Shown here: in pieces, positions 774 to 39,975 of the stretch
Numbering within the stretch: position 1 is the first letter of the stretch
Layout: every line of letters starts with the position of its first letter
NCBI GenBank assembly: GCA_009845545.1
Contig: VXZK01000303.1
Span: 1 to 47,148, forward strand
DNA length: 47,148 nucleotides
DNA from: Candidatus Poribacteria bacterium
Lineage (GTDB): Bacteria > Poribacteria > WGA-4E > WGA-3G
Direction of reading: 5' to 3'
The notes under the pieces: generated by a model
What the model saw: the letters and a program-made list of their open reading frames with translations, nothing else
Told to the model about the DNA's origin: nothing
Databases searched by the model: none
Translations under genes and position numbers: made by a program

Positions 774-851
774 GCCTGCAATTCAACAGAGAGTTATCGA
801 GTCTCGTGAAAATGGGAAACCGAATGACTCTGTGTCAAAAATCGTATCTTT

Positions 852-880
852 TTGACAATTAATTTTCAATTTGATATAAT
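852..880 (+). promoter_or_regulatory. Consensus sigma-70-type promoter (TTGACA-17 nt-TATAAT)
   Basis: TTGACA at 852-857 and TATAAT at 875-880 with an exact 17-nt spacer. It points toward the ORF starting at 1114, leaving a ~225-nt leader. Confidence 0.5.
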
Positions 881-1113
881 GTTTCTCATGACGAAAGCAT
901 TTGTGATGTGGCATTGGTACAACAACACACCTATACCGCGAATAGCACTGTCGTTATGAGTTTTAGATGAGTATGACACCCCTGGTTTTCTATTGTGTCA
1001 CAAAGACAGGTCCAATTGGAAACTAGCGCGTTATAACAAGGAAGATTGCCAAGCCCACCACAGTGCTTTGCTCTCTTCACACGCAAGGGGACAACCCCCT
1101 ACGGAGAATTCAA

Positions 1114-2162: not shown

Positions 2163-2226
2163 CAACTTTTATATCGGGCATGCCTGGTACCTGCCCCGAC
2201 ATATTCACATCATAATAGGAGTCATC

Positions 2227-8760: not shown

Positions 8761-9785
8761 TCTAAACGTGAGTTTGATAAATATTTGAAAGTTTTTGAAT
8801 AAAGAGAACCCTTTTGGTATAATGAAACAATCTCTAACTTCCAAAAGGAGTTCTCTGATGAGTATTCTAACACTTTTCTGTAATATTGACGACTTTTTTC
8901 TGCTTCACGAGAAATGGAAGGCAACACATTGTCTACCGGAGACGACAACACCGGAAATACGTGGACGCCCTCGGCAACTGCATCCGAGCGAAGTGATGAC
9001 GATCCTTATTGCTTTCCACCAAAGCAACTATCGGACGTTTAAACACTTTTACAACAAACATGTTTGTGTCTATTGGTGTGCGGAGTTTCCGCATTTAGTG
9101 AGTTATTCTCGGTTCGTTCAACTCAAGAAAGAGGTGTTGATGCTCTTGACGCTTTATCTTCATGCTCAGCTCGGTGAATGTAGCGGTATCTCCTTCGTGG
9201 ATTCGACCCGTTTGCGGGTTTGCGATAATAAGCGGATCTCCTCACATCGCGTCTTCGCTGAACATGCCGGACGCTCGAAGACTTCAATGGGATGGTTCTA
9301 TGGTTTTAAACTCCACCTCATCATTAATGAGAGAGGGGATCTCTTAGGTTTTCAAGTGTCTTCGGGGAATACGGATGATCGTCAACCTCTCTGGGAGTTG
9401 TCGCCGGATAGCCTGTTCGGCCCCCTTTATGGCGATAAAGGGTATATCTCGAAAGACCTCCGTACGTTTCTCAAGGAACAAGGTATCAACTTGTGCTATA
9501 AAGTCCGTAAGAACATGAAACCGCTGGAGTTATCCGTTTCCGATGAGGTGCTATTGAAGAAACGGTCGATTATAGAATCAGTGATAAAGGCGTTGAAAAC
9601 GCAGACGGTGCTTGAACACAGTCGTCATAGAAGTTTCGCGAACTTTCAAGTCAACCTTATTTCTGCGTTGATTGCGTATCAACTGCTGGAGAGCAAGCCC
9701 TCGGCGAACATATTGGAACTTCAAGGAAGCAACGACTTACCCGTGCTTTTCTAACGGATAAACTTTTTTCAAACTCACGTTTCTA
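8761..9785 (+). mobile_element. IS982-family insertion sequence (~1.0 kb)
   Basis: Terminal inverted repeats: AAACGTGAGTTTGA at 8764-8777 and its exact reverse complement at 9769-9782. They enclose a single transposase ORF. No clear target-site duplication found. Confidence 0.75.
8858..9754 (+). CDS. IS982-family DDE transposase
   Basis: ATG at 8858 follows AAAAGGAG. MSILTLFCNIDDFF..., FVDSTRLRVCDNKR, SMGWFYGFKLHLIINERG, YGDKGYIS and RSIIESVIKALK match IS982 transposase signatures as I recall them. Confidence 0.85.
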   Translation: MSILTLFCNIDDFFLLHEKWKATHCLPETTTPEIRGRPRQLHPSEVMTILIAFHQSNYRTFKHFYNKHVCVYWCAEFPHLVSYSRFVQLKKEVLMLLTLYLHAQLGECSGISFVDSTRLRVCDNKRISSHRVFAEHAGRSKTSMGWFYGFKLHLIINERGDLLGFQVSSGNTDDRQPLWELSPDSLFGPLYGDKGYISKDLRTFLKEQGINLCYKVRKNMKPLELSVSDEVLLKKRSIIESVIKALKTQTVLEHSRHRSFANFQVNLISALIAYQLLESKPSANILELQGSNDLPVLF

Positions 9786-12355: not shown

Positions 12356-12503
12356 TTTTTCCTCTTGACATGTACCTCCCAATCTGATATGATAAATATA
12401 TTAGTATTTTAAGCGATTTGTATCTGCAGGTATGGGTGCTATATTTGGATAAGTCGCTTACATGTTAGGTAGAAGTGCTTGAATTGTACAAATGGAGGGA
12501 ATA

Positions 12504-13334
12504 ATGAATTTCAATGTTATTTTTTCTCGAAAGTTCTATCTTTCGAGTATAACGCTTACATGTTTCAGTCTCTTTTCTTTTGGCATTCTATTCGTTTCCA
12601 CCGCCTCAGCCGAAATTGATCCCGATACCCTTGTCGGCATGTGGCTCTTTGATGAAGGAAAAGGAAAAGTCGCAACCGATGCCTCTGGAAACAAGTTGGA
12701 CGGCGAATTTGAAGGCAGTCCCAAATGGGTTGAAGGTAAATTTGGAATGGCACTTGAATTCGATGGTAAATCGGCTTATGTTCAGATTCCAGCACATGAG
12801 AACCCAACCGAGGCAATCACGGTATCCGCTTGGGCGAAGAGTGGCACCGACCTTTGGAACCAACCCGGTTGGATAATTGAAAAGCGGAATGCCTATATCA
12901 TTCATCCTAACAGCGGGACGAAAAACATCGCATGGCCAGTTTGCAATGGCGGTTGTTGGAATAAACCCGGCGGTTGGAATGACGGTAATGTTGGCACAGA
13001 TGATATTACCGAATGGCACATGTACACAACCACTTATGATAGCGATACCGGCGAATGGTATATTTATATTGATGCCGAAGAAGCAAGCGCATTGGATTTG
13101 GCTAAAAATCCAATTGATCTTGATACCGGTCCCGCCAATATCGGATTTGATGATTGTTGCGGCGGCGCACGCTTTGGTTTAGGTGCTGTCGATGAAGTGG
13201 CGATTTTCAGTGTCGCTTTGGAAGAAAGGGACATTCAACAAATGTACGAGCAGGGTCTCGAATTTGCAGTCCTGGCGGTTGACCCAGCGGATAAAATGAC
13301 AACCACTTGGGCAAACGTGAAGGTCAAGTATTAG
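12504..13334 (+). CDS. Secreted LamG (Laminin_G_3/concanavalin-like) domain protein carrying the C-terminal tag
   Basis: ATG at 12504 follows GGAGGG. Signal peptide present. LVGMWLFDEGKGKVATDASGNKLDGEFEGSPKWVEGKFGMALEFDG...DEVAIFSVALEERDIQ is typical LamG. C-terminus LAVDPADKMTTTWANVKVKY. Confidence 0.8.
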   Translation: MNFNVIFSRKFYLSSITLTCFSLFSFGILFVSTASAEIDPDTLVGMWLFDEGKGKVATDASGNKLDGEFEGSPKWVEGKFGMALEFDGKSAYVQIPAHENPTEAITVSAWAKSGTDLWNQPGWIIEKRNAYIIHPNSGTKNIAWPVCNGGCWNKPGGWNDGNVGTDDITEWHMYTTTYDSDTGEWYIYIDAEEASALDLAKNPIDLDTGPANIGFDDCCGGARFGLGAVDEVAIFSVALEERDIQQMYEQGLEFAVLAVDPADKMTTTWANVKVKY

Positions 13335-22484: not shown

Positions 22485-22635
22485 ACGTGGCGGCATTGCC
22501 GAAAGAAGTACCTGGGCACCGTTACCTATTTAATAATTGCCTATAGGTCAAATGTGCAGAAAATTAATCGAAAACCGATTTTGGTTCTCGCTGCGAAGTA
22601 GGACAAAATCGAGCGAAAACCTGATAGATAAAAAT

Positions 22636-23415
22636 ATGCTTTCAAAACAGCAGTTAGCACAATTTGAAGAAGAAGGTTACCTACTCCTTTCTGGGTTGAT
22701 TCCACAAGAGACTGGCACAAAAGCAGAGGCAGCGATGTGGAAAATGATGGGCATGGAGTCAGATAATCCTGATTCATGGCGACATTTCAAGCGTCCAGGA
22801 CTTGCTGGATTTTACATGGAACAGATGTCTACCGGGAATCGCATAGAACTTTTCGGCGTTACCAATCCAGACGTATTGGCATGTTGTACCCCTGATTATC
22901 TTACTGTTCTTAAACAACTTGCATCTCGATATCCAGAAATTCCACATTGTGAAGATCAACGTCCTGATGGTATTTGGGCACTCAACCAGTTCCCCGTTTC
23001 AGGCAAGTGGAAAAGCCCGTCGCCGCACTTAGATGGCGATTTCCGAGATTTCCGGTTGGACCCGGGGACGTTTCGAGCGACCAGTTTAACCTACCTCACC
23101 GATGCAAATTCACACGGCGGAACAACTGTGATATGGCCCGAAGGGCCGCAGCGCATTCGTAAATTCCGCAAAAAAAATCCCGAATTCTCAAACCACGTCC
23201 GCGATGTCCGAGCACTCTTTTCTGAGATGGACTTAGGCGAACCGATGGAAGTCGTCGCTAAACAGGGGGATGTCCTATTTTTTCATCACCTATTACCGCA
23301 CTCTGGGACGATGAACGTCGGTGCTTCTCCGCGCTTCGCAATTAGATATCTGTGTTTATGCCTCGCATGCCGCAAATGGGAGAAAAAAGGGGAGTGGAAT
23401 ATCTGGATGCCGTGA
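22636..23415 (+). CDS. Phytanoyl-CoA dioxygenase (PhyH) family protein
   Basis: MLSKQQLAQFEEEGYLLLSGLIP... N-terminus, HLDGD and ...HHLLPHSG (2-His-1-carboxylate pattern). Confidence 0.75.
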   Translation: MLSKQQLAQFEEEGYLLLSGLIPQETGTKAEAAMWKMMGMESDNPDSWRHFKRPGLAGFYMEQMSTGNRIELFGVTNPDVLACCTPDYLTVLKQLASRYPEIPHCEDQRPDGIWALNQFPVSGKWKSPSPHLDGDFRDFRLDPGTFRATSLTYLTDANSHGGTTVIWPEGPQRIRKFRKKNPEFSNHVRDVRALFSEMDLGEPMEVVAKQGDVLFFHHLLPHSGTMNVGASPRFAIRYLCLCLACRKWEKKGEWNIWMP

Positions 23416-23437: not shown

Positions 23438-24184
23438 ATGACTAAAAATAAAAAGATTGCTTTTTGCCAATATTTTTTCTTGGCACTTGCTTTGGTTTTA
23501 ACTTTTGTCTTAGCGGAAAGTACAGACGCACAAAAAGTGTTCGTACAAACAGGATTCGAGGAATTCCCCACCGGTAACCCACCCAAAGATTGGGAGGCAA
23601 TCGGCGGCGACTTTGAAGTTTCTAACGACACCGTCAAAACCGATAAAAAAGCACTCGCTATCTTAAACGGTGCGGATGGAGACGGACTCGGTGTCCCCAT
23701 AGAAACCGAAGACCCCATTATTTCGGTCGAATTCTATGTGTATATTGAAGGGGGCGGTAGGTCTTTCAATCTCAAAGTCGCCACTGCTGATGGTTTCGGC
23801 GAAAACAATGGCTGCACCTACATCAATTGGGATGCCGGTATTGTCCGACTTTACGACGGGGCCGCATGGCAACCCATTGGCGATTTTGAAACCGATACAT
23901 GGAAGTACGTCTACATTGTCGCCGATGTCGGCAAAAGCGAATTTGATTTTTCTGTAGGTGATGACAGGGACGATGCGTTGGGTGCCAAGCCAGAAAAAGG
24001 ACTGGCCTTTCGGAATGCTGCCCTCGGTCCCACCGCTAAATGGTTCGCTTTCTATACATGGGGAATAACTGTCCCCGGCTATATAGACGATCTACTTGTC
24101 TATGAAGGTGCAGATGCGCTTGATCTCGCCGTTGACCCAACCGGAAAACTCACCACATTCTGGGGACGTATCAAGACACCGTAA
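23438..24184 (+). CDS. Secreted jelly-roll/lectin-like hypothetical protein carrying the C-terminal tag
   Basis: ATG at 23438 follows GGAGG. Signal peptide MTKNKKIAFCQYFFLALALVLTFVLAES. Mostly beta-type sequence. C-terminus LAVDPTGKLTTFWGRIKTP. Confidence 0.6.
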   Translation: MTKNKKIAFCQYFFLALALVLTFVLAESTDAQKVFVQTGFEEFPTGNPPKDWEAIGGDFEVSNDTVKTDKKALAILNGADGDGLGVPIETEDPIISVEFYVYIEGGGRSFNLKVATADGFGENNGCTYINWDAGIVRLYDGAAWQPIGDFETDTWKYVYIVADVGKSEFDFSVGDDRDDALGAKPEKGLAFRNAALGPTAKWFAFYTWGITVPGYIDDLLVYEGADALDLAVDPTGKLTTFWGRIKTP

Positions 24185-24470: not shown

Positions 24471-25217
24471 ATGAAATTGATGCGAGATGTGAGAGAGCGA
24501 ATTCACACTGCGGGGACAGGGTTACGGGATCTGTTAAGTACCGTTCGGGAGTTAACAGATGGTATCCGATCTATAGACAGAGAGCGGATACCGGATCCTA
24601 AAAAAGCTATTCAAGAGTTAAAAGGATCCGTGGGGGTTGTACGTAAGGCGGGATTAGATGAATTGAAAAAATTGAGAGCGGCTATTCAGGATCTGCAAGA
24701 CGCTATTGACGCTATGAAAACTAAAGCAAAAACACGGATGCCAGATATGTCTATGGCTGAGTGGTGGTGGAATTTGAAAAATGCCTTTGATACATTGAAA
24801 AAAGCGGTTCCTTCTATAAGGGAGGTACGAGTGCCAAGTCCAGATGACCTACCGTTAGGTGAGATAGCGGGATTAATTGCCGGATTTGGAGTCCCCGGCC
24901 TTGTGTTGGTTATTTTAATAACATATTCACCTTGGGTCGGTGCGGCAGCGATAACATCATCCCTTGCTGCCTTGGGACCCTTTGGGATGCTTAGTGGAAT
25001 CGCTATGTTGGGAGTTTTAGCATTTATTTCAAGGGCACTCACCAAATTTGGCTTTGAGAAAGTGCTCTCAGCAGTACTTGTTAAGTTAAAAGAAGATGGT
25101 AAAACTTGTGAAGATATTCAAGAGGAAATTAATGCATATCCGATTTCCGATGAACTAAAACAAAAAATTGAGGAATTTATTGAAGAGTTCTACGAAGGAA
25201 AAAATCATGAGCAATGA
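24471..25217 (+). CDS. Hypothetical membrane protein (coiled-coil N-terminus, 2-3 TM helices)
   Basis: 248-aa ORF preceded by GGTGGAG. Hydrophobic block GEIAGLIAGFGVPGLVLVILITY...LGPFGMLSGIAMLGVLAFISRAL. I recognise no family. Confidence 0.45.
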   Translation: MKLMRDVRERIHTAGTGLRDLLSTVRELTDGIRSIDRERIPDPKKAIQELKGSVGVVRKAGLDELKKLRAAIQDLQDAIDAMKTKAKTRMPDMSMAEWWWNLKNAFDTLKKAVPSIREVRVPSPDDLPLGEIAGLIAGFGVPGLVLVILITYSPWVGAAAITSSLAALGPFGMLSGIAMLGVLAFISRALTKFGFEKVLSAVLVKLKEDGKTCEDIQEEINAYPISDELKQKIEEFIEEFYEGKNHEQ

Positions 25218-26022
25218 AACAGTTTGTCTCACAGCAGCCCAGCGATTACACTTTGACATCTACGGTTATGTATTATTAGAGAACGTCCTAAACAGCGATG
25301 AAATTGAGCGTATGAAGGGCGCACTCTATAAAATAAAAGCCGACGAAGGTCGGGATGCCAAGCGTGTCTATGCCCGTCCGGGCGGAGAGCACCACGTCCT
25401 TTTCGGCAACCTTGTTGAATATGATCCAGCGTTATTGGAATACGCTGCACATCCAAAACTCGTGCCATTGGTCGAAGAAGTCGTCGGTGGCGCAGTCCGT
25501 CTTGAGGAAACCGAAGCGATCATTAATAGTCGTAATCCAGAGACAGAGCTGGACGAACTCCACAAACGCCGCTATAACCCGACCGGTTTTCATCGTGGGA
25601 CGCAACACGGGTGGGGCACTTATATAGAACAGAACAAGTTCCACTGCATCTTCGTCAAAACGCTTGCATACCTTACCGATGTCGGTCCCGATGATGGCGG
25701 TACATGCGTCATACCGGGCAGCCATCGCTTAACGTGGAATCAGAGCGAGATGATTGAAGCGGCACTCTCGGATGACAAACTCATCTACCAAGTCGAAGCC
25801 TCCGCCGGTTCCGTCCTGCTTTTTGCCGAAGCGTTGATTCACAGCACCACTGCTATCCGTAGCGACAAAGAGCGTGTCATCCTCATCTCCGGTTACACAC
25901 CACCGATGGTACGCGAATGGCCCGGCAACGAAGTGAGCCCAGAATTTATTGAAACCTTACCAGAAGACATCCGTCCGCTTATCTCAGGAAGCGACAGCTG
26001 GCACTGGAAGCGTCGGTATTGA
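25207..26022 (+). CDS. Phytanoyl-CoA dioxygenase (PhyH) family protein
   Basis: LTAAQRLHFDIYGYVLLENVLNSDEIERM..., FHRGTQH, CVIPGSHR, LIHST. Overlaps the upstream gene by 11 nt. Confidence 0.85.
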   Translation: MSNETVCLTAAQRLHFDIYGYVLLENVLNSDEIERMKGALYKIKADEGRDAKRVYARPGGEHHVLFGNLVEYDPALLEYAAHPKLVPLVEEVVGGAVRLEETEAIINSRNPETELDELHKRRYNPTGFHRGTQHGWGTYIEQNKFHCIFVKTLAYLTDVGPDDGGTCVIPGSHRLTWNQSEMIEAALSDDKLIYQVEASAGSVLLFAEALIHSTTAIRSDKERVILISGYTPPMVREWPGNEVSPEFIETLPEDIRPLISGSDSWHWKRRY

Positions 26023-26058: not shown

Positions 26059-26772
26059 TTATTGACGCTTGAGTTTTCCCCATGTAATAGCGAGTTTGCT
26101 GCTCGGTTCTACGGGAAGGGTTCCGGGACCACCGTCTGGAATATTGCTCCCTGTGATTTTAACGTCATCAAACCGAGCCTGCGCACCTGAGACTATGAGC
26201 CCAGCTTTTCCGCTTTTTATCGGGTTTTTGTCAGTAACAGTGAACACCTCGTCATCAATTTGAAATTTAAGTTTCCCGCTGCTGTCAATAGATGCGGTAA
26301 GGGCATACCATCTATTGAGTTTCGCTGCGAAATCGAATTCGCCGAGTGTTGATGCTCTGCCTGTATGCTTTGTAATATAGACGGTCTTCGACAGGTAAAA
26401 AATCTCACATATGTAGAAGGAAGATGCCTCCCATCTCTGATGCAGGATCAGTCCGAACGAGGCTGGTTTATCCTTGGCTTTAACCAACTTGGCTCTACAT
26501 GAAAGCGAGTAGGCTCTCCAATCAAGTTCACCTGTTGACCATACGGTGGGCAAGTCATGGTGAGGTTCAAATGTTTCAGTCACTGCCTCACCTCTATCAA
26601 TCCACCATTTTGCCTCTTCTTCGTCAAGAGTATTAAAGAGTTCCCATTCTTGCGTATTGTCATCTTCAAAAGCGTCTGTCCATGTACCAGCAAAGCTCTG
26701 TTGATTAAAGACCATAGCACACAGAACAACATAGAAGGGGCATAAAAAACCTCTGAGTTTCTTAAATCTCAT
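26059..26772 (-). CDS. Secreted DUF1080-like (3-keto-disaccharide hydrolase/LamG-like) protein carrying the C-terminal tag
   Basis: Signal peptide. ...GKAGLIVSGAQARFDDVKITG is typical of the DUF1080 end. C-terminus LPVEPSSKLAITWGKLKRQ. Confidence 0.7.
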   Translation of the reverse strand: MRFKKLRGFLCPFYVVLCAMVFNQQSFAGTWTDAFEDDNTQEWELFNTLDEEEAKWWIDRGEAVTETFEPHHDLPTVWSTGELDWRAYSLSCRAKLVKAKDKPASFGLILHQRWEASSFYICEIFYLSKTVYITKHTGRASTLGEFDFAAKLNRWYALTASIDSSGKLKFQIDDEVFTVTDKNPIKSGKAGLIVSGAQARFDDVKITGSNIPDGGPGTLPVEPSSKLAITWGKLKRQ

Positions 26773-26824: not shown

Positions 26825-28339
26825 TTATGCCCCAGCAGTCCGCGGCATCCACAACGGTTCTTTTCCCATCTCGGCGAACAGCAGCTTCATAACCATTTCT
26901 GCCCTCAATTCGGCATGCTCAGCCGAATTCCACAGGTTATTGATCTCTCCAGGATCTGCTTTCAAATCGAACAACTCCCCATAGTCTCGGTTGTAGTAAA
27001 CTGTCAGTTTATAACGATCATCAACGTAGGTTTTAACGTGTACCGTCGTCGGTTCGTGACGGTTTTCGACGAGGATATGATCGCGTGCCTGTTCCGCTTG
27101 TCCCGACCAGACCGGCATCTGATCTACACCCGTCATCGGGCGCGGAATATCAATACCAGTGGCACTGAGAAACGTGGGTGCTAAATCTACCAGCGTCTGC
27201 AATGCCTCCGACTGTTTTCCCGCAGGCACAACACCCGGATACCGCACGATAAACGGGACCCGAATCACGTCCTCATAGTGGAACGCGCCTTTTGCGATCA
27301 AACCGTGCTGTCCGTAAAAATGTCCATGATCGGATGTGAACACGACCAATGTGTTGTCTGCAAGCCCGAGTTCATCCAGTTTCGCCAAGATTTTCCCGAT
27401 GTACTTATCCATCAACGTCACCATCCCGTAGTAGACTGCAATATCTTTGGCGAGTTCGTCCCGATCGTGTAGATGTGACCTGAAACCGTGGACACCCTTT
27501 CCGCTTTCACGCCAAGCGGAGAAATCGGGTTTTTGCTGTTGCGTGAGTTGGAAGTGCGGTGGGTTATTATCATGTTCGCCTTCAGTTACCGATGGGACTG
27601 TCAATTCTGCTGGATCATACATTGTATCCCACGGTTCCGGCACAAGATATTTCGGGTGCGGATCGAAAAAACTCGCCCAAAGAAAAAAGTTCTCGCCATT
27701 TTGTTGGTACGCCTCCATGAGTGCGTTTGTGCGTTCCGCAATCCATGTATCGTAATGGTATTCCTCTGGGATGGGCCACTTTCGATATTGCCCGCGGGCG
27801 TTCCCTGTAGGTGGCGCGAAATAATCTCGCCAATTCGTGCAGCCGTTCTCTTCCATCCAGATCGCATAATGCTGTCCGACGTGCGCTTCGTCGGCGTGAT
27901 TGCGTGCCAATTCAACGTGTTCAAAGCCATAAAACGGTTCGTCGAAACTCCGCCAGAAATCTAAATCTTGGAGAATCGGATAGGATTCCAGAGACGGGAA
28001 TTCCTCCGTGCCGTGGAGCGGTTGAAAATGCGCTTTTCCAACAAGGGCAGTACGATAATCTGCGTCCATGAAGTCTTCACCGACGGTATGCTCGGCTTCG
28101 GAGAGTTTTGTGCCGAGGGACCAAGCACCGTGTTGACTCGGGTACTTCCCAGTAATAATGGATGCGCGCGTCGGTGTGCAGGTTGGATTCGGACAATAGG
28201 CTCTGTTGAAAAGTGTCCCTTGCTGTGCCAATGTATCCAAATGAGGGGTCTGGATTTCGGGGTTGAGGCAACCCAAAGTGTTCCAATGCTGCTGATCGCT
28301 GGTGATAAGTAAGATATTAGGGCTGGTTTCGGTTCCCAT
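26825..28339 (-). CDS. Sulfatase (Cys-type, formylglycine-dependent)
   Basis: PNILLITSDQQHW..., CPNPTCTPTRASIITGKYPSQHG (C-x-P-x-R), VFTSDHGH. Confidence 0.9.
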   Translation of the reverse strand: MGTETSPNILLITSDQQHWNTLGCLNPEIQTPHLDTLAQQGTLFNRAYCPNPTCTPTRASIITGKYPSQHGAWSLGTKLSEAEHTVGEDFMDADYRTALVGKAHFQPLHGTEEFPSLESYPILQDLDFWRSFDEPFYGFEHVELARNHADEAHVGQHYAIWMEENGCTNWRDYFAPPTGNARGQYRKWPIPEEYHYDTWIAERTNALMEAYQQNGENFFLWASFFDPHPKYLVPEPWDTMYDPAELTVPSVTEGEHDNNPPHFQLTQQQKPDFSAWRESGKGVHGFRSHLHDRDELAKDIAVYYGMVTLMDKYIGKILAKLDELGLADNTLVVFTSDHGHFYGQHGLIAKGAFHYEDVIRVPFIVRYPGVVPAGKQSEALQTLVDLAPTFLSATGIDIPRPMTGVDQMPVWSGQAEQARDHILVENRHEPTTVHVKTYVDDRYKLTVYYNRDYGELFDLKADPGEINNLWNSAEHAELRAEMVMKLLFAEMGKEPLWMPRTAGA

Positions 28340-28415
28340 GCAGTTTTCCTTTGTATTGTATGTGTTGAGAAAAATCAGCATAGCATTTTACAAAGAATAA
28401 TGCAAGAAGAATCCT

Positions 28416-29242: not shown

Positions 29243-30284
29243 AAAAGCTATAAAATACCTTAGCAGAGCCGTTGAACGAAGCCCCGGTTTTGTCCAAGCC
29301 TACATTCGCCGCGGCGATGTTTACCGTAAGATGGGTAAGTTTGATCTGGCGATTGCAGATTATAACCAAGCGATGAGACTCACCGGATATCCTGCTGAAG
29401 CGTATTACAATCGCGGGATCACCTATGGCATGAAAGGTGAGATTGACAAAGCAATTGATGACTTCACCCAAGCGATACAATACCAACCTGACTGTGTGGA
29501 AGCATATTATTGTCGCGGCAACGCTTACAGCGGCAAATACGAGTTTGACCGCGCTATAAAAGACTGTGACAAGGCGATCCAACTCAACCCTGAAGCTGCC
29601 AATGCCTATCTCATTCGCGGCAACATCTACGCTAACAAAGGCGAGTTTGATTGCGCCATTACGGACTTTACCAAAGCGATAGAATTGCAGCCTGATGCTG
29701 TTGATGTCTATGTTATCCGTGCTAAAGCCTACAAAGCCAAAGGGAACATTGACACAGCTATTGCGAACTATAGCAGGGCAATAGAATTAGATTCCGACTA
29801 CGCCGAAGCATATCACGAGCGTGGTAACGCTTATGTCCTCAAAGGCGATTTTGATCATGTTCTTGAGGACTATACAAAAGTATTAGAATTAGAACCCGAC
29901 TTTGGACCAGTCTATTACAATCGGGCTCTCGCTTGGTTACAAAAGCACGAATGGGATAAAGCTAGAGCAGATCTCGTCTCCGCTCGAAATTGCGGGATCA
30001 ATTCATTTCGTAATGAGCCACAAAACGTGGTAAATTTTGAAAAGTCAATTGGCGTTAAATTACCTAAAGACATAGCTACAATGTTAACGCAACGCGCTGG
30101 CCAAACGCAAACTCCGCCCAAGGTGAAAAATCAACCATTTGAAGACCACGCTGCAATGTCGGCACAGCAAGAGGTACTCCCAACTTCACCGATGTGGATA
30201 AACCAATTCCAGGGTCAAAGGGAGCAGGACGCACTTCAATTTGGGGTACGCGTTGCTTTATTCACTGTCATTTCTCCTGAGTGA
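29211..30284 (+). CDS. TPR repeat protein
   Basis: ATG at 29211 follows AAGGAG and overlaps the FRG gene by 32 nt. About 8 canonical TPRs (AYxxRGxxYxxxGxxDxAIxDYxxAIxLxP). Confidence 0.85.
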   Translation: MASQKKLAHYEKAIKYLSRAVERSPGFVQAYIRRGDVYRKMGKFDLAIADYNQAMRLTGYPAEAYYNRGITYGMKGEIDKAIDDFTQAIQYQPDCVEAYYCRGNAYSGKYEFDRAIKDCDKAIQLNPEAANAYLIRGNIYANKGEFDCAITDFTKAIELQPDAVDVYVIRAKAYKAKGNIDTAIANYSRAIELDSDYAEAYHERGNAYVLKGDFDHVLEDYTKVLELEPDFGPVYYNRALAWLQKHEWDKARADLVSARNCGINSFRNEPQNVVNFEKSIGVKLPKDIATMLTQRAGQTQTPPKVKNQPFEDHAAMSAQQEVLPTSPMWINQFQGQREQDALQFGVRVALFTVISPE

Positions 30285-30294
30285 AACAGATACC

Positions 30295-31707
30295 ATGCCC
30301 GCAAAACAACACCCCAATCTTCTCATCATCATGTCCGATGAACACGCACCGATGTATAGCGGTCCGTACAGACACCCGCTTGTCCAAACGCCACACATGG
30401 ACAGACTCGCTGAAGACGGTGTCACCTTCACAAACGCTTACTGCAATTCACCGCTCTGTATGCCATCTCGGATGTCGTTTATGACAGGTCAGTATATCCA
30501 CAAAATCGGCGCGTGGGACAACGCCGCACCGCTGCGTCCAGATGCTGTCACATGGGCACACCTCTTACGCTCGGTAGGTTATGACGTTGTGCTCTCAGGA
30601 AAACAGCATTTCGGCGGCATGGATCAGCTCCACGGATTTCGCGCACAACTCGCCCGCGATCTGCACGCAGAACGACAGCACGCACTTATAGACTGGGATA
30701 ACGGTACACCACCAGCAAACCGTCCATGGCAAGGACTCTCGCAAGCACGTCCCGGAACAACCGTAGAGATTGAAGTCGATGACCTCGCGGAAACAGAGGC
30801 TCTAAAATATCTCCGAGAGCCTGCTCGGAAGAAGCAACCGTGGGCACTCAACGTCTCGTTTATCGCACCGCATTTCCCGCTCATCGTACCGCAACGGTTT
30901 TGGGACCTCTACCCGCTTGACGAGATTGATCTCCCCAACATTCCAGAGGGACACCTCGAAAACCAGCCCCCTGTCTATCAACGGATGCGACGCATGTTCG
31001 GATGTGTTGATTTTCCCGAAGAACTCGTCCGTCGTGGACGCGCAGGCTATTATGGATTGATTACCTATCTCGACGAAAAAATTGGCAACTTGCTCAGAGC
31101 ACTTGAGGAGACCGGGCAGTCGGAAAATACTATTGTCATCTATACCAGCGACCACGGTGAAATGAATGGTGAGCACGGCATGTGGCGGAAATCAAACTTC
31201 TATGAAGCATCTGCGCGTGTTCCCCTACAAATTATGTTCCCTGATGAGGTGTCTGCCGGTAGACAAATTGATAAAGTCGTTTCGCTTGTAGATTTAACGG
31301 CAACGCTTGTTGATATTGCCGGCGCGCAGCCTATGCATCAACTTGATGGCGATAGTCTCTTGCCTTTGATGCAGCGCACCAGAACGGACTGGAAAGATTT
31401 CGCATTCTCCGAATACCTCGCGCACGGTGTCGAACGACCAATGGCGATGCTACGGAAGGGGGACTATAAATTCAACTATAGCCTCGGCGCCCCCCCAGAA
31501 CTTTACGACATCGCCGAGGATCCAGACGAATTCCGGAATCTCGTCAATGACGAGGCACATCAGGCGGTTTGCCAAGAACTTGAGGCACAACTATTAGCAG
31601 AGTGGGATCCAGTTGAAATCGAAAAGCAAGTTCGGGCAAGTCAAAAAGCCCGCATTCTGATAGATCAGGTCACTGATGGACAGTGGAGAAAGCCTCCTAA
31701 TCCGTAG
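30295..31707 (+). CDS. Sulfatase, choline-sulfatase-like (Cys-type)
   Basis: PNLLIIMSDEH...YCNSPLCMPSRMSFMTGQYIHKIGAWDNA closely resembles the BetC-type motif. IYTSDHGEMNGEHGMW. Confidence 0.85.
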   Translation: MPAKQHPNLLIIMSDEHAPMYSGPYRHPLVQTPHMDRLAEDGVTFTNAYCNSPLCMPSRMSFMTGQYIHKIGAWDNAAPLRPDAVTWAHLLRSVGYDVVLSGKQHFGGMDQLHGFRAQLARDLHAERQHALIDWDNGTPPANRPWQGLSQARPGTTVEIEVDDLAETEALKYLREPARKKQPWALNVSFIAPHFPLIVPQRFWDLYPLDEIDLPNIPEGHLENQPPVYQRMRRMFGCVDFPEELVRRGRAGYYGLITYLDEKIGNLLRALEETGQSENTIVIYTSDHGEMNGEHGMWRKSNFYEASARVPLQIMFPDEVSAGRQIDKVVSLVDLTATLVDIAGAQPMHQLDGDSLLPLMQRTRTDWKDFAFSEYLAHGVERPMAMLRKGDYKFNYSLGAPPELYDIAEDPDEFRNLVNDEAHQAVCQELEAQLLAEWDPVEIEKQVRASQKARILIDQVTDGQWRKPPNP

Positions 31708-31809
31708 CCGCCCACTTCCGATTGCCGAGTTTTACCTTGAAGGACCTACCGGAGTATGCTATGCTATAGACATCATAAATCGCAATAATTCTTGCATCGG
31801 AGTGTTTTG

Positions 31810-33231
31810 ATGTCTCGTTCAACGAATAAGCGACCGAATCTCGTCTATGTTTTCGCCGATCAGCTCCGTTACCAGTCGTGTGGGTACGCTGGAGATAGCC
31901 GCGCACGGACACCTAATATTGACCAACTTGCGACAGAGGGTGCCGATTTCTGCAACGCTGTCTCTGGCAGCCCGATGTGCTCGCCCTATCGCGCCTCACT
32001 TTTCACCGGCAAATACGCCAGTAGCACCGGCATGGCGATTAATGAGCTCCGTATGAACCCAAACCATGACTGCTTCGGGCATGTCTTGCATCGCAACGGC
32101 TACCAGACGAGTTACATCGGAAAATGGCATCTGTGGGCAAATCAATTAGGGAGACACAACGACCCTAATAATTCCTACATTCCACCCGGACAGCATCGAC
32201 TCGGTTTCGATGGCGAGTGGTCAGCATACAATTTTCATCATCTCTATTTTGACGCATATTATCACAAAGACTCGCCTGAAAAGATCGTACTGCCCGGATA
32301 TGAACCGGATGGACAGACAGATATGGCGATTGATTACCTGCAAAGGGTATCAATAACGGATGACCCGTTCGCGCTTTTCCTCTCAATCGGGACACCGCAC
32401 GATCCATGGACACAAGACAACGTTCCAGCCGCTGATTATGAGATGTTCCGAGACGTTGAATTCCCGCTGCCACCCAACTATCGTGATGAGAATGACCCTT
32501 ACGGTGATACGTGGGCAATTATGTCCCCTAAACAAAGGACCCAAATCCCTGAATGGATGCGCGTCTACTACGCAATGACTACCAATCTGGATCGGAATAT
32601 CGGGCGGCTGCTTCGTGCCATTGATGACCTTGGATTACGCGATGATACAATCTTTGTCTTTACATCTGATCACGGTGAAATGTTTGGAGCACAGGGTCGC
32701 CGCGCAAAAAATATCTTTTATGAAGAGGCTGTCCGCGTGCCTTTTCTCGTCCGATGGCAAAAGCAAATCCCAGAGCAACACGTCTCAGACGCTTGCCTCA
32801 ACACACCGGACATCATGCCGACGTTGCTATCCATGCTGGATCTGCCAATCCCAGAAGATGTTGAAGGCACGGATCTAAGCAACGCTGCTTTTAATCAACC
32901 CACTGATGAACCCGATGCAGCGTTCATGCAAGGCATGGGGTGTACCGCAAAATGGGAAGACGGTTACGAGTGGCGAGCACTTCGCACAAAACAGCATACC
33001 TACGCCGTCCACCGTCCAGATCGCAGTGAGAAACTTTTCGATAATATCGCCGATCCGTTCCAAACCCGTAATCTGATTGATAACCCTAAATCGACCGAAC
33101 TCCGAGAGCAGTTCCGGGCAATGTTGCAGCAACGCATGGATGCACTTAACGACACCTTTGAGGCGTGTACATGGTATCGCGATAATTGGACCGAAGATCG
33201 GATCATCTTGCGTACTGCGACATTAAGCTGA
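31810..33231 (+). CDS. Sulfatase (Cys-type)
   Basis: PNLVYVFADQLRYQS..., SGSPMCSPYRASLFTGKY (C-x-P-x-R), VFTSDHGEMFG. Confidence 0.9.
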   Translation: MSRSTNKRPNLVYVFADQLRYQSCGYAGDSRARTPNIDQLATEGADFCNAVSGSPMCSPYRASLFTGKYASSTGMAINELRMNPNHDCFGHVLHRNGYQTSYIGKWHLWANQLGRHNDPNNSYIPPGQHRLGFDGEWSAYNFHHLYFDAYYHKDSPEKIVLPGYEPDGQTDMAIDYLQRVSITDDPFALFLSIGTPHDPWTQDNVPAADYEMFRDVEFPLPPNYRDENDPYGDTWAIMSPKQRTQIPEWMRVYYAMTTNLDRNIGRLLRAIDDLGLRDDTIFVFTSDHGEMFGAQGRRAKNIFYEEAVRVPFLVRWQKQIPEQHVSDACLNTPDIMPTLLSMLDLPIPEDVEGTDLSNAAFNQPTDEPDAAFMQGMGCTAKWEDGYEWRALRTKQHTYAVHRPDRSEKLFDNIADPFQTRNLIDNPKSTELREQFRAMLQQRMDALNDTFEACTWYRDNWTEDRIILRTATLS

Positions 33232-34735: not shown

Positions 34736-35766
34736 TCAGGGCCACGGGAAGAACGGTGCTGGGACATTTGCCGCCCAACTGATGAGCGACCACACAACCG
34801 CCATGCTGAATTCCCCGAAGACCATGCCTAAAAAGAAAGGGCGAAACCGCTGATACTGACGAATCCCACTGTAACGGAGAAGCGGTGTTTTAATGCCCCA
34901 CGCGATTAAGACGGGAAACCAGAATACAATCAGTGTCCACGAAGCCGATAACGCATAGCCAAGTGGGTGCAGGGGCCACCACCAATATAACATTCTCAAG
35001 ATGACCAAGCCAGTCGTCACAAATATGCCTACCCCGAAAAAGAGTCCGCCGGTTGTGCGGAGGTCCGCGCCTAACCCTTCTATCGCCGCAACGTTGTCCT
35101 GAAGTGCCCAAAGCGGATTCCCGCGATACGTGTAGCTATACATATAGTTTGCACCGTGAGTATAGGGAAGCCATAGATGGAGGGCTGCTGCGGTGATGAA
35201 CGCTAACGTCCAACCTAATACGAACACCCCTACCAACGACCGATAAGACATTCCGACCCGATCCCGGATTTTTAAGCCGTCAAGGAAACCTGTCAGGATT
35301 AACCCGCGCTGATCGCGAGTGAAAATCGCATCGAGGAACGACAGCACAGTTAGACTCTGCGCGCCCAATGAGGCTTTGCTCGCAACGAGTTGATACAAAT
35401 CTAAGGGGCGAAACGATGTTTCTGTCATTAGCAACCCACCTTCCGCCGTACTACGTGCCATCACAACCGCAACAAGGCAGATATAAACCAGTATCTCAAA
35501 TGCCGCAAACCCTAAAGTCAGTCCAGCTGCATAGCACCACAGAAAGAAGAACCACAGACTGAAAAGTAGTTGCGTGGGAAGGAAATAAAAAAGCCTATCG
35601 CCGCGAAAGAGAGAAAAATCGGTGTGTAGACCATAGCGTTGAACGGGCGTTCTGTAAAGTATTGATTGAGTACGTGCCTCAGCGGGAGATTCGGAATTTG
35701 GGGCCAGATTTCATGGAGTCCGTTTAACGTAAAGATCAAGGCAGGCAGCGCAAACCCTAACCACAT
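34736..35766 (-). pseudogene. Polytopic membrane protein interrupted by a frameshift (possibly also 5'-truncated)
   Basis: Fragments 35518-35766 and 34736-35464 are in different frames. One extra T in the T6 run (plus-strand A6 at 35587-35592) would give a continuous ...AAIGFFYFLPTQLLFSLWFFFLWCYAAGL...VVMARST... reading. Confidence 0.5.
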
Positions 35767-37889: not shown

Positions 37890-38762
37890 ATGAACGAACC
37901 CCAATTTACTCGGCATCCAACGGAAATATTTGGTTACCCTTTTACTAACAAAGACTCGGTTGTACAAGCGAAACGTGAGGAACAGTTCTGTCCCTTTTTA
38001 AATGGTGAATGTAAAAAACCTCGAAAAAGTCAACCTGAAGTTAAAATTGGGGTTTGCACGCTTGGCTACAAAGGCAAGTTTCTTGAAAAGATAACGCCTG
38101 TTATTGTATGCCCCCACCGTCTTGAAGAAGCAATCGTCTACGATACGCTTAAGGAATTATACTTTGGCGATTTGCCGGATAGTTATCAGATAAGATGGGC
38201 ATCTGAAGTGTCTTGCGGGGTGGCAGGAAGTATTGATTTTGTCGCCGCCAAAATGAAAGAAGAAGAAATAGAAGATTTTTTGTGTGTTGAATTTCAGGCA
38301 GCTGGAACGACTGGAACGCCTTGGCCAGCAGTTATAGACTTTAAACAGACTGGGCACTTTCAAAAGGAAACTTATAAATATGGAATCAATTGGGCGAATG
38401 AGTTTGTCAAAACAATGATGCAGCAGGTTTATAAAAAGGGAATGGTGATGGAGAGTTGGGGCAAAAAAATTGTGTTTGTCATTCAAGATGTCGGGTTGGC
38501 TTATATTCAGTCTACTACTGATGCCCAGGATTTACGTGAGGCGACGGATAACGATGCTATCCATTTTTGTACATTTCGGATGATATGGGATAAAAGTTCA
38601 AAGGCTTGGCAACTAAAATTTGACAAGCGACTGAGTACAGATATAGAAGGTATTCGGAAAATATTAGGTGGGGCTCCTGAAGATGAATTTCCCACCATCA
38701 GCGAGTTTGAAAAGAATATCAACAAGCGATTAAAATTACCAGGTCAATTGAGCGGGGTTTAA
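37890..38762 (+). CDS. NotI-family type II restriction endonuclease (putative)
   Basis: N-terminal four-Cys cluster (CPF...ECKK...GVC...VCPHR) and an IDFVAAK...VEFQAAG (D...ExQ) core resemble NotI features (CPF...GVC...VCPNR; LEIQTMD) as I recall them. Adjacent to a methyltransferase. Confidence 0.6.
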   Translation: MNEPQFTRHPTEIFGYPFTNKDSVVQAKREEQFCPFLNGECKKPRKSQPEVKIGVCTLGYKGKFLEKITPVIVCPHRLEEAIVYDTLKELYFGDLPDSYQIRWASEVSCGVAGSIDFVAAKMKEEEIEDFLCVEFQAAGTTGTPWPAVIDFKQTGHFQKETYKYGINWANEFVKTMMQQVYKKGMVMESWGKKIVFVIQDVGLAYIQSTTDAQDLREATDNDAIHFCTFRMIWDKSSKAWQLKFDKRLSTDIEGIRKILGGAPEDEFPTISEFEKNINKRLKLPGQLSGV

Positions 38763-39803
38763 CCGATTTCTGGCGATTTCTACGTATTCTTCGCTTAGCT
38801 CAATTCCAAGTCCTTGTCTATTGAGTTGATTGGCAGCTATTAAGGTACTTCCTGTGCCCATAAAAGGATCGAGGATAACGCTGCCGATTCGACTGGTCGC
38901 TTTAATCGGCAATTCCAATAACTCAGTCGGAAATACAGCGTAGTGCACATCTTTTCTCCATTCATCCTCTGGAACAATGTTCCAAATATCAGAGGGTAAA
39001 TGCCCTTTGGCGGTGCTTGTCATAATATAAAAGCCTTTTGTTTTTAATTCTTTGGCGCGTCCGCTAACCTCCAAATTGTCGCTGTGGTAGGTGCGTTGTG
39101 CGCCTCTAATTGTCATTCTAAAATCGACTAGCTCGCCTACCTTTATTTTCTCTAACGTCTGATCAAGTGTTTTTATCGCTGCTGCGCGTTCTTGTTCATT
39201 TAATTCCTTAGATTCAAGAATCTGTCTACGATATTTTTTCCCGCTAACGCCTGTAGCAGAAATAATTTTTTTGCCATTGATTTTTGGAAGTTTTTTCGGT
39301 TTAATCCTGATAGCGTCAGTGTCGTAATAATACTTTTTACTTTTGACAAAGTGAAAGATGTGTTCATGAACATCTCTGAGTCTATCCTTCGCACTTTGTG
39401 TTCCTTTCATTTGATGCCATATAACATCATTGCGAAGTATCCATCCATTGTTTTGCAAAGCGAGAGCGACCCGCCAAGGCATTCCCATTAGATTTTTGTT
39501 ATGGTATTTATCGCCAAGATTCAACCATACTGAGCCATCCGATTTTAATACCCGCTTTATCTGGAGAAAGATTCCAGCAAGTCTTTTCACATATTCTTCA
39601 GGTGTTTTTTCCTCACCAATCATCGAATCCGCATCGTTTCCATTGGTGCGATATTTTCTCATTTGCCAATACGGAGGCGAAGTAATAACGCAATCAATGC
39701 TTTCATCGGGGATTTCAGCCAAGATATCTTTACAATTTCCTGTCAATAACCCGTTTTTCTGATTTTTATCAAGGACCTTGGAAATTATCTGTTGATTTGT
39801 CAT
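38736..39803 (-). CDS. Site-specific DNA methyltransferase (N4-cytosine/N6-adenine, beta class)
   Basis: Motif IV ITSPPYW lies N-terminal to motif I DPFMGTGSTLIAA. SPPY favours N4-cytosine specificity. The 3' end overlaps the endonuclease 3' end by 27 nt. Confidence 0.9.
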   Translation of the reverse strand: MTNQQIISKVLDKNQKNGLLTGNCKDILAEIPDESIDCVITSPPYWQMRKYRTNGNDADSMIGEEKTPEEYVKRLAGIFLQIKRVLKSDGSVWLNLGDKYHNKNLMGMPWRVALALQNNGWILRNDVIWHQMKGTQSAKDRLRDVHEHIFHFVKSKKYYYDTDAIRIKPKKLPKINGKKIISATGVSGKKYRRQILESKELNEQERAAAIKTLDQTLEKIKVGELVDFRMTIRGAQRTYHSDNLEVSGRAKELKTKGFYIMTSTAKGHLPSDIWNIVPEDEWRKDVHYAVFPTELLELPIKATSRIGSVILDPFMGTGSTLIAANQLNRQGLGIELSEEYVEIARNRLNPAQLTW

Positions 39804-39975
39804 GTTAATGTTTCCTTCTGAATTGCAGTAAAATTTAATCAGAACGTACAGCGAGGGCCACACCCTTTACTGGAAAGAGCACTAAAGCATAGAGTTTGGC
39901 CGAAAAAGTAATAAAAAATCAGTTGTACTGCACTGTTTTGTTATATCTGAAATTATAGGCGAAAATCGTGTTTCC

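Follow-up and report, generated by a model that had tools for sequence, protein, structure and literature searches.

The window analysed here is the whole of a 47,148-nucleotide stretch of DNA from Candidatus Poribacteria (contig VXZK01000303.1 of assembly GCA_009845545.1, positions 1 to 47,148). Four of its open reading frames (ORFs) have as their C-terminal end the motif V-[DE]-P-x-x-K-[LM]-[TA]-[TI]-x-W-[GA]-x-[LIV]-K and two or three further residues. These genes, and a longer C-terminal domain that serves as a comparator, are listed below.

2233 to 3240, + strand: PD40/TolB-like beta-propeller protein, exported and tagged (335 aa; translation and Pfam PD40 repeat)
3184 to 3228, + strand: propeller tag core VEPTKKLTILWGELK, then QTE and the stop (six-frame regular expression and degenerate DNA pattern)
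6348 to 6614, - strand: comparator outside the tag family, a FlgD_ig / type IX secretion system (T9SS) type A-like C-terminal domain of about 90 aa on a 798-aa NPCBM-cohesin-dockerin protein (TIGR04183 at 31.2 bits with a cut-off of 23, FlgD_ig, Por_Secre_tail)
12492 to 13334, + strand: LamG (Laminin_G_3) protein, exported and tagged (280 aa; translation and Pfam)
13278 to 13322, + strand: LamG tag core VDPADKMTTTWANVK, then VKY and the stop (same two methods)
23438 to 24184, + strand: jelly-roll gene, concanavalin-like/L-type-lectin-like, exported and tagged (248 aa; translation)
23438 to 23530, + strand: predicted Sec signal peptide of the jelly-roll protein, MTKNKKIAFCQYFFLALALVLTFVLAESTDA (sequence and heuristic)
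24131 to 24175, + strand: jelly-roll tag core VDPTGKLTTFWGRIK, then TP and the stop (same two methods)
26059 to 26772, - strand: DUF1080-like (3-keto-disaccharide-hydrolase-like) jelly-roll protein, exported and tagged (237 aa; translation)
26068 to 26112, - strand: DUF1080-like tag core VEPSSKLAITWGKLK, then RQ and the stop (same two methods)

The four tag peptides lie at 3178-3237 (+), 13272-13331 (+), 24125-24181 (+) and 26062-26118 (-), as the preliminary description of this DNA had reported, and the motif stands two to three residues ahead of the stop codon in each ORF. A six-frame regular-expression scan confined the motif to these four sites of the window. Furthermore, the back-translated degenerate DNA pattern GTNGANCCN7AARNTNRCNAYN4TGGGSN5TNAAR, which does not demand a stop codon, gave four matches in the window and none in 100 dinucleotide shuffles. 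A Sec-type signal peptide was recognised by eye and by heuristic at the N-terminus of all four proteins, with the cleavage site of the jelly-roll protein inferred by the -3/-1 rule.

It had been proposed that the four carriers are unrelated proteins with different folds. They indeed show no detectable sequence similarity and fall into separate BLAST clusters, but the difference in fold is strict for the propeller only, because the LamG, jelly-roll and DUF1080-like proteins probably share the broad concanavalin-like beta-sandwich fold class. The jelly-roll protein has no Pfam match and resembles lectin, carbohydrate-binding module (CBM) and BoNT-Hc folds in Foldseek; nearly all of its 235 homologs retain the tag, and these homologs are from Candidatus Poribacteria wherever the source is named. 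The propeller protein has 54 homologs at 37-99% identity, with signal peptide and tag kept in all full-length ones, so that the tag is retained in orthologues as distant as 37% identity. Residues 91-249 of the LamG protein match the full Pfam Laminin_G_3 model (1-151), and the domain therefore ends 12 residues ahead of the tag; this protein falls in the largest carrier family (59 of 120 carriers). The DUF1080-like protein belongs to a carrier cluster whose representative has a weak PF06439 match.

The tag is far more widespread than the window. Scanning 185,579 species genomes with the degenerate DNA pattern returned at least 116 DNA blocks, 111 labelled Poribacteria and five from unlabelled metagenome-assembled genomes (MAGs), one of which is syntenic with a Poribacteria contig. 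Although the pattern does not demand a stop, 130 of the 131 matches listed from genomes lie 1-12 codons ahead of one. A hidden Markov model (HMM) of the tag, as had been suggested, was built and run on 0.95 Mb of related loci, where each of the 173 strong matches is at most 12 residues from the stop, with none at an internal position. In a 5.8-billion-protein database, a 42-residue tag profile matched 39 short proteins, all of them fragments, apparently because candidates were length-matched. These fragments then served as the query for an exhaustive search of 1.84 billion representative proteins, which gave 757 clusters; the tag is at the C-terminus in 142 of the best 146 of these, and cluster members with an organism name are Poribacteria. 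Similarly, the pattern matched four times in 2.9 million IMG/VR contigs, each time a true tag on a LamG-like ORF, which indicates a pattern free of chance background. Among the labelled matches listed and the named cluster members, the tag is confined to the phylum Poribacteria.

Its carriers make up at least 22 sequence-unrelated families (BLAST clusters), with domains including Laminin_G_3, F5_F8_type_C (discoidin), CBM9_1, CBM_4_9, DUF1080-like, DUF3108_like, DUF4960, PD40 and a metzincin-like fusion. Most are small lectin- or CBM-like binding modules and a few are enzymes, without any other anchor; no C-terminal transmembrane (TM) helix was found in the tagged proteins, and a lipobox occurs in only 2 of 121. 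The link to export is strong, with a signal peptide in 153 of 172 tagged proteins compared with 103 of 570 untagged neighbour genes (89% versus 18%; odds ratio 36, p = 3e-66), which bears out the expected enrichment on secreted proteins.

Across these families the broad consensus reads [AP]-V-[ED]-P-x-[GD]-K-L-[AT]-T-T-W-[GA]-x-[LI]-K, with 1-8 residues, mostly polar or basic, after it, and it is nearly constant at V, [ED]-P, K, T-T, W, G/A and K. Codon choice at the conserved residues is spread over all synonymous codons, with the same codon used at about 40% of identical residues, so the conservation is at the peptide level, as had been claimed, and a DNA repeat or recombination site is ruled out as its origin. 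No Pfam or NCBIfam model covers the tag, and a PDB sequence search with the tag profile gave chance or partial matches only, for example designed 'Bagel' propellers and an internal GH3 segment, EPGGRLPTTWGSL.

In AlphaFold models of the tagged proteins alone, the tag lies outside the fold of both the jelly-roll and the propeller carrier. The beta-sandwich core of the former has a pLDDT of 80-92, and its residues 231-248, past the last strand at 214-223, have a pLDDT of about 40; the latter has a fold at 80-97 and residues 316-335, past the last strand at 309-311, at about 30. The tag is thus predicted to be a flexible, disordered tail (pLDDT 30-40) on two different folds. As such, with at least 22 BLAST-unrelated families and different Pfam domains among its carriers, the tag does not represent the closing strand of a domain that they have in common. 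Neither this outcome nor a lack of enrichment at the C-termini of secreted proteins, the two findings that the preliminary description had named as counting against an undescribed candidate sorting, docking or anchoring tag, was obtained, and its proposal is supported.

We consider it moderately probable that the tag is a lineage-specific C-terminal short linear recognition peptide for the sorting or anchoring of soluble, Sec-exported proteins of Candidatus Poribacteria; it looks like an undescribed address label for the cell envelope. A carrier would cross the inner membrane via Sec and lose its type I signal peptide, as the signal peptides suggest, and its globular domain would fold and leave a flexible tail of about 20 residues, as in the structure predictions. 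Because the tag is conserved across unrelated cargo and is strictly C-terminal, the invariant residues of this tail may be bound by one shared phylum-specific envelope receptor, probably through strand addition or inside a groove for which a free chain end is required. Binding would route or tether the cargo, most likely to the outer membrane or the cell surface, a destination that is suggested by the nature of the cargo and by analogy, and the tag would play the role that T9SS C-terminal domains, dockerins or sortase-type signals have elsewhere. A more specific version of this proposal is plausible yet tentative, and we lean slightly against holding it in full: the tag could be the cargo signal of an unrecognised envelope sorting or surface-display system found only in Poribacteria, in which a dedicated receptor or translocon reads a TM-less linear peptide some 19 residues long. 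Each genome would then have about a hundred or more cargo proteins, glycan-binding modules for the most part, and the machinery would be unrelated to sortase, exosortase, rhombosortase or T9SS. If the surface-display reading is true, the glycan-binding cargo could mediate contact with the sponge matrix.

The closest analogues help to place this proposal. Like the tag, T9SS C-terminal domains occupy the extreme C-terminus of Sec-exported proteins with signal peptides, occur on many unrelated cargo proteins, including adhesins, lectin-like modules and proteases, and are lineage-restricted. However, the T9SS domain folds as an Ig-like beta-sandwich 70-100 aa in length, whereas the tag is a disordered peptide of about 19 aa without strands in the two AlphaFold models, and TIGR04183 and PF18962 have no match at E <= 1 on the four tagged window proteins. 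The T9SS-type domain that had been noted on the protease-like protein was confirmed (TIGR04183 as listed above; FlgD_ig 36.8 bits); such long type A-like domains are present on five larger proteins in the tag loci and never co-occur with the short tag. Dockerins, through their binding to cohesins, are C-terminal modules that tether unrelated secreted carbohydrate-active or carbohydrate-binding proteins to a scaffold, as the tag would, and Pfam finds both cohesin and dockerin domains in the window, with Dockerin_1 on the protease-like protein. A dockerin folds into a Ca-binding, duplicated EF-hand-like module of about 60-70 aa; the tag is far shorter and has no duplicated Ca-binding motif, and Dockerin_1 (PF00404) did not match the tagged proteins or the carrier cluster representatives.

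Short terminal peptides that lie outside the fold and are read by a receptor offer a further comparison, namely PTS1 -SKL, KDEL, bacterial microcompartment (BMC) encapsulation peptides and the C-terminal beta-signal of outer membrane proteins (OMPs). Unlike in chain-end targeting peptides, the tag varies in its last residues, and its motif therefore does not include the free carboxylate end. The OMP beta-signal is the terminal aromatic residue (F/Y/W) of a beta-barrel, in contrast to the 1-8 variable residues that end the tag on soluble beta-sandwich and propeller carriers. BMC encapsulation peptides are amphipathic helices on cytosolic cargo, whereas tag cargo carries Sec signal peptides and the helical moment of the tag does not exceed that of shuffled sequences in any meaningful degree; since the cargo is Sec-exported, cytosolic microcompartment targeting is excluded.

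The tag could also be a periplasmic docking or regulatory peptide, read for instance by a protease, chaperone, anti-sigma factor or transporter component, that would assemble, regulate or turn over its carriers with no surface delivery. We regard this as unlikely, although several observations fit it. The proteins of a conserved 445-aa carrier family with five members (P0226) combine an ECF sigma factor, a hydrophobic segment and, behind them, a tagged DUF1080-like domain; should this segment be an uncleaved anchor, the tag would have to work at the inner membrane, on its periplasmic face, and this sits poorly with outer-membrane export. An SVSA|G site follows the segment, so it could instead be cleaved. 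Moreover, an ECF sigma gene and two small envelope ORFs stand just upstream of the tagged PD40 gene of the window, and ECF sigma or anti-sigma genes occur in 9 of 116 tag loci, but ECF sigma genes in 8% of 8-kb blocks would be close to their general abundance. A flexible tail could bind PDZ-, TPR- or POTRA-like modules by strand addition, yet, in contrast to classical PDZ or Tsp ligands, the last 1-8 residues are constant in neither length nor sequence, and hundreds of anchorless lectin- or CBM-like modules are easier to explain as displayed binding modules.

The neighbourhoods of tagged genes were also searched for partners. No recurrent candidate receptor, protease or transporter appeared among the 570 untagged neighbour ORFs, which were clustered, or in the Pfam-annotated window. 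The neighbours are general Poribacteria content, such as PhyH, TPR, sulfatases, FGE-like proteins, oxidoreductases and ECF sigma factors. Five loci have a DUF6785/DUF6784 polytopic membrane protein close to tagged genes, and a truncated copy is present in the window; this protein is not proposed as the receptor because it is too infrequent and too widespread outside the phylum.

A self-sufficient membrane or LPS anchor, in which a cationic, Trp-containing tail would need no protein receptor, is a reading that we find quite improbable. It is likened to PBP5 and PBP6, which have C-terminal amphipathic helices, and the tag does have an invariant Trp, Leu/Ile, two Lys and a net charge, tail included, of about +1.8. 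The preliminary description had seen neither a hydrophobic helix nor a basic tail after the motif; the helix is indeed absent, but there is a weak basic tail, with 21% Arg and 8% Lys after the last Lys. The helical hydrophobic moment equals that of shuffled sequences (0.303 versus 0.300) and the strand-type moment is barely higher, which rules out an amphipathic helix as the anchor, and Gly right after Trp and Pro at position 3 disfavour a continuous helix. In addition, interfacial anchors conserve physicochemistry, whereas the tag is near-invariant in sequence across families. The 19-residue Kyte-Doolittle mean over the last 32 aa has a median of 0.12 and a maximum of 0.97, and the hydrophobic stretch of the tag is about nine residues, so a TM helix is impossible. 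The lack of a TM helix and of amphipathicity beyond that of shuffled sequences favours protein recognition over membrane insertion.

The same values bear on whether the tag is a truncated PEP-CTERM/exosortase-type signal, with [AP]-V-E-P as transpeptidase site, a vestigial hydrophobic stretch and a basic tail, which seems to us very improbable. Sortase-family signals (LPXTG/sortase, PEP-CTERM/exosortase, GlyGly-CTERM/rhombosortase and PGF-CTERM/archaeosortase) share with the tag a short conserved C-terminal motif on many exported families, and there is a loose likeness of layout, V-[ED]-P, then L-[AT]-T-T-W-G-x-[LI], then K-x-x-[RK], in which V-[ED]-P faintly recalls PEP. In these signals a membrane-spanning helix must follow the motif so that the substrate stays at the membrane enzyme, and the short hydrophobic stretch of the tag cannot form one. 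Furthermore, 39% of tags have D in place of E, PEP has lost its counterpart of the first P, and the end of the tag is mildly basic where PEP-CTERM has an Arg-rich cluster. An LPXTG or Gly-Gly motif is absent from the consensus and no NCBIfam PEP-CTERM or other CTERM model matched at E <= 1, in agreement with the original view that the tag lacks PEP-CTERM, LPXTG or GlyGly-CTERM architecture; an unsystematic look at 0.95 Mb of flanking DNA, recurrent neighbour families included, noticed no exosortase-like gene. Finally, it is extremely improbable that the tag is a piece of ordinary structure (the closing strand or the tail of a shared C-terminal domain) or a DNA-level repeat, since, although three of the four window carriers are concanavalin-like beta-sandwiches, the tag is also on propeller, discoidin, CBM9, CBM4_9, DUF4960 and metzincin-containing proteins, lies beyond a complete Laminin_G_3 model, is predicted to be disordered on two folds and has randomised synonymous codons.

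A recognition peptide for envelope sorting would be of wider interest. Time and again, C-terminal sorting signals have pointed the way to new envelope machineries (sortases, exosortases, rhombosortase and T9SS among them), and to our knowledge each known signal is a motif with a membrane helix or a folded domain. The tag is neither, so its reader should be new. Among the uncultured symbionts of marine sponges, Poribacteria are one of the dominant phyla, and the tag marks a large coherent set of exported lectin- or CBM-like proteins and some enzymes, a ready candidate surface or secreted proteome for interaction between symbiont and host matrix. The structural (Por) genes of T9SS were reported as not found in six Poribacteria single-cell genomes, in a study that mentions TIGR04183-like domains in Poribacteria and not the short tag (Kamke et al., 2014; PMC3909097). 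T9SS-like C-terminal domains without reported T9SS genes make outer-membrane export in this phylum a puzzle, which the tag makes more tractable.

In addition, the tag offers a precise means of tracing the machinery and is simple enough for a curated annotation model. We propose a Poribacteria C-terminal tag family defined by V-[ED]-P-x2-K-[LVI]-[AT]-[TI]-x-W-[GA]-x-[LIV]-K no more than 12 residues from the stop and an N-terminal Sec signal peptide, which takes in the four window proteins and 173 ORFs in related loci.

The tag is a strictly C-terminal, peptide-level-conserved and predicted-disordered tail borne by hundreds of unrelated, Sec-exported and otherwise unanchored proteins of one phylum. 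The four copies that the preliminary description had located in the window are confirmed in the ORF translations.

Tagged ORFs of the window
2233-3240 (+), PD40 propeller protein, ending with tag YTVEPTKKLTILWGELKQTE
12492-13334 (+), LamG protein, ending with tag LAVDPADKMTTTWANVKVKY
23438-24184 (+), 248-aa jelly-roll protein, ending with tag LAVDPTGKLTTFWGRIKTP
26059-26772 (-), DUF1080-like protein, ending with tag LPVEPSSKLAITWGKLKRQ

Scanning all six frames of the window with a regular expression found the motif at these four places only, with a stop 2-3 codons after each, and a back-translated degenerate DNA pattern containing no stop codon (GTNGANCCN7AARNTNRCNAYN4TGGGSN5TNAAR) gave 4 matches in the window vs 0 in 100 dinucleotide-preserving shuffles. 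Identical tag residues use the same codon only about 40% of the time, and for V, P, L, T, G and K all synonymous codons occur among the tags; because codons differ at identical residues, conservation is at the peptide level, as had been proposed. In consensus, the tag reads [AP]-V-[ED]-P-x-[GD]-K-L-[AT]-T-T-W-[GA]-x-[LI]-K; 1-8 further residues (most commonly 3) come after it, 29% of which are Arg or Lys. A subgroup of PD40 propellers (P0355, P0359, P0365 and others) has the variant LEPEGLLTTVWGKIK, in which Leu replaces the otherwise near-invariant first Lys, so this Lys is not absolutely required.

When one genome per species (185,579 species) was scanned with the DNA pattern, at least 116 blocks of up to 8 kb were recovered; among the matches listed, 111 are labelled Poribacteria, a sponge-associated phylum, and 5 are unlabelled MAGs. 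One of the unlabelled blocks shows ~90% identity and synteny with a Poribacteria contig, two encode tagged proteins with 62-66% identity to those of Poribacteria, and the other two are divergent. A stop lies within 1-12 codons (commonest distance 3) after 130 of the 131 pattern matches listed; in the one exception the block ends before a stop is reached. A 19-column HMM, of the kind that the preliminary description had suggested for related MAGs, was built from the pattern-matched tags and run on every ORF in the six frames of the collected DNA (0.95 Mb); strong matches (at least 15 bits) proved exclusively C-terminal, 173/173 lying within 12 residues of the ORF end. In addition, 15 weaker, degenerate variants (V-Q-P, V-E-A, K-L-S, K-L-P) are terminal too, and internal matches number only 8, all below 5 bits.

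Similarly, HMMER was run exhaustively on 1.84 billion representative proteins with a profile of the window tags plus fragments and returned 757 clusters at E ≤ 0.001. Among the best 146 of these, 111 have a strong tag and 31 a degenerate one, which is C-terminal in all but three (P0232 and the false positives P0261 and P0270); four more have 16-59 extra residues after the tag, which look like read-through or miscalls. The jelly-roll protein has 235 homologs in a large protein database, nearly all ending in LAVDPxGKLTTFWGxVKxxx, and every source-named one is from Candidatus Poribacteria. Every full-length homolog in the PD40 family keeps the tag, even at identities as low as 37%. Across the 2.9 million contigs of IMG/VR, the pattern matched just 4 times, always in LamG-like ORFs tagged close to the C-terminus (no more than 5 residues from the stop in three of them, 31 in L118), so its chance background is essentially zero. 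Judged by the block labels (111/116 among the matches listed), the named database matches and the zero chance matches in IMG/VR, the tag appears restricted to Poribacteria. The four IMG/VR contigs (L117-L120) are classed as viral, the 31-residue extension of L118 being basic, and may be Poribacteria prophages, phages carrying host-like tagged genes, or misclassified cellular contigs. With 4 carriers in the 47-kb window and ~66 in the blocks beyond those that selected them, a rough extrapolation suggests that a genome may hold some 100 carriers or more.

After removal of signal peptide and tag, 120 complete carriers form 22 clusters without mutual BLAST similarity, LamG proteins making up half of the set. 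Pfam domains on carriers include Laminin_G_3, F5_F8_type_C, CBM9_1, CBM_4_9, DUF3108_like, DUF4960 and PD40, with weak matches to PA14 and 3-keto-disaccharide-hydrolase, and many carriers have no Pfam match. Pattern-selected carriers have a median length of 257 aa (range 209-337 aa); a longer one joins a signal peptide, an HExxHxxGxxH metzincin-like region and a DUF1080-like domain. Tag enrichment on signal-peptide proteins, another check proposed beforehand, is strong: a strict heuristic called an N-terminal Sec signal peptide in 153/172 tagged genes vs 103/570 untagged neighbours (odds ratio 36, p = 3e-66). Lipobox-like sequences occur in only 2/121 carriers, and the 19-residue Kyte-Doolittle mean over the last 32 residues (median 0.12, maximum 0.97) never nears TM-helix hydrophobicity, in keeping with the absence of a hydrophobic helix noted earlier. 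Carriers are thus predicted to be soluble, exported and otherwise unanchored.

From this pattern we infer that the tag would be a short linear motif bound by one common receptor, and its strict confinement to chain ends points to binding by strand addition or by insertion into a groove or pore. The tag would route or tether cargo to the outer membrane or cell surface, a role analogous to that of T9SS C-terminal domains, dockerins or sortase signals elsewhere. Such an outcome would be the most economical because the cargo is mostly single lectin- or CBM-like modules, which would be of little use free in solution, and we hold to receptor-read routing or tethering with slightly better than even confidence.

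The main rival, a docking or regulatory element inside the periplasm, is unlikely but carries some weight. It is prompted by a fusion family outside the window (P0226 / P0328; 445 aa, 5 cluster members) in which an ECF sigma-70 factor (residues ~1-180) is continued in frame by the hydrophobic segment MNSMIAISAICALLWGSAFSVSA, then by a DUF1080-like jelly-roll and finally by the tag; this might be a one-component sigma factor that is tethered to the membrane and whose extracytoplasmic domain bears the tag. It is also prompted by a sigma gene upstream of the PD40 carrier of the window, where 183-3240 (+) may be a sigma-linked envelope operon of four ORFs.

ORFs preceding the tagged PD40 propeller
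183-773 (+), ECF sigma gene, first of the four
1063-1683 (+), ORF with an N-terminal hydrophobic segment, downstream of the sigma gene
1683-2162 (+), probable lipoprotein with an LQTGC lipobox, followed by the tagged propeller at 2233-3240

Direct anchoring to lipid or LPS is improbable: the helical hydrophobic moment of the tag equals that of shuffled sequence (0.303 vs 0.300) and its residues are near-invariant (V, [ED]-P, K, T-T, W, G/A, K), which disfavours a self-sufficient amphipathic membrane anchor. A degenerate PEP-CTERM-like signal is very improbable, as sortase-, exosortase-, rhombosortase- and archaeosortase-type signals require a TM helix, which the tag lacks, and it is covered at E ≤ 1 by no model of Pfam or of NCBIfam release 20, whose curated CTERM sorting-signal models were all included. 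The tag is also too short and too disordered for a dockerin or a T9SS C-terminal domain, the latter a difference in length already pointed out; unlike PDZ ligands and PTS1/KDEL-type signals its last residues vary, and it lacks the terminal aromatic residue of the OMP beta-signal. Microcompartment encapsulation peptides are excluded because carriers are exported. The tag was not found in PDB sequences; an internal, structured GH3 beta-glucosidase segment (7pjj_A, residues 653-665, EPGGRLPTTWGSL) and the likewise internal and structured YVTN-type propeller repeat AVDPAGKF of P0270 are apparent chance resemblances.

The predicted structures also place the tag outside the carrier fold. AlphaFold2 models the jelly-roll protein (57-sequence alignment) as a concanavalin-like beta-sandwich with pLDDT 80-92 and a last strand at residues 214-223, Foldseek matching it to L-type lectins, BoNT Hc lectin-like domains and CBMs; pLDDT is ~40 over the tag region (231-248). 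The PD40 protein (43 sequences) is modelled as a beta-propeller with pLDDT 80-97 and a last strand at 309-311, falling to ~30 over 316-335, and in the LamG protein 12 residues separate the end of the complete Laminin_G_3 model from the tag. These models and this boundary speak against the main refuting outcome named in the preliminary description, namely that the tag is just the last strand of one shared domain. The "different folds" of the preliminary description hold for the propeller, but three of the four window carriers are probably of one broad concanavalin-like fold class, so the case against a shared fold rests on the propeller and the wider family list. A structural element is barely conceivable, given low pLDDT beyond the last strand in two models and unrelated carriers. 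The tag is classed here with C-terminal sorting or docking tags and is undescribed as far as curated libraries and Kamke et al. 2014 (PMC3909097) show, although an earlier description is possible. It is real, occurs on a large scale and is so precise that it could be used to trace its reading machinery directly.

Besides the short tag, Poribacteria also use a long C-terminal domain of the FlgD_ig / T9SS type A kind (NPFNPETWIPY...RKMLIxK). In the collected loci, 5 ORFs carry it (152 to 886 aa, the shortest abutting a block edge), and none of them bears the short tag as well. In the window it was correctly recognised on an exported 798-aa protease-like protein (6345-8741, -), where TIGR04183 scores above cut-off alongside NPCBM, cohesin and dockerin domains. 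Kamke et al. 2014 (PMC3909097) noted such domains in Poribacteria and did not find Por/T9SS secretion structural genes in their single-cell genomes. A 319-aa ORF resembling a DDE transposase by eye (8795-9754, +) adjoins the region upstream of the protease-like gene, with a slight overlap.

The gene content of the window, comprising sulfatases, PhyH dioxygenases, TPR proteins, an ECF sigma factor, PPK2 and a BatA/VWA-DUF4175 cluster, agrees with a Poribacteria origin, PhyH being the most abundant domain family in the phylum (Kamke et al. 2014, PMC3909097). No partner gene for the tag emerged among 570 neighbouring ORFs. Three sulfatase and two PhyH genes are interleaved with the tagged ones; such glycosaminoglycan-degradation and PhyH gene content is typical of Poribacteria.

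Other features of the window
26825-28381 (-), sulfatase
30241-31707 (+), sulfatase
31792-33231 (+), sulfatase
22537-23415 (+), PhyH dioxygenase
25168-26022 (+), PhyH dioxygenase
34736-35464 (-), DUF6785/DUF6784 protein, C-terminal third only
37890-38762 (+), NotI-like restriction endonuclease
38736-39863 (-), N6/N4 DNA methylase

The endonuclease pairs with the adjoining methylase as a restriction-modification system of type II. In several loci (L050, L054, L067, L021 and the window), tagged genes have a DUF6785/DUF6784 protein as neighbour, a polytopic membrane protein of 650-700 aa, and the window copy may be truncated or pseudogenised.
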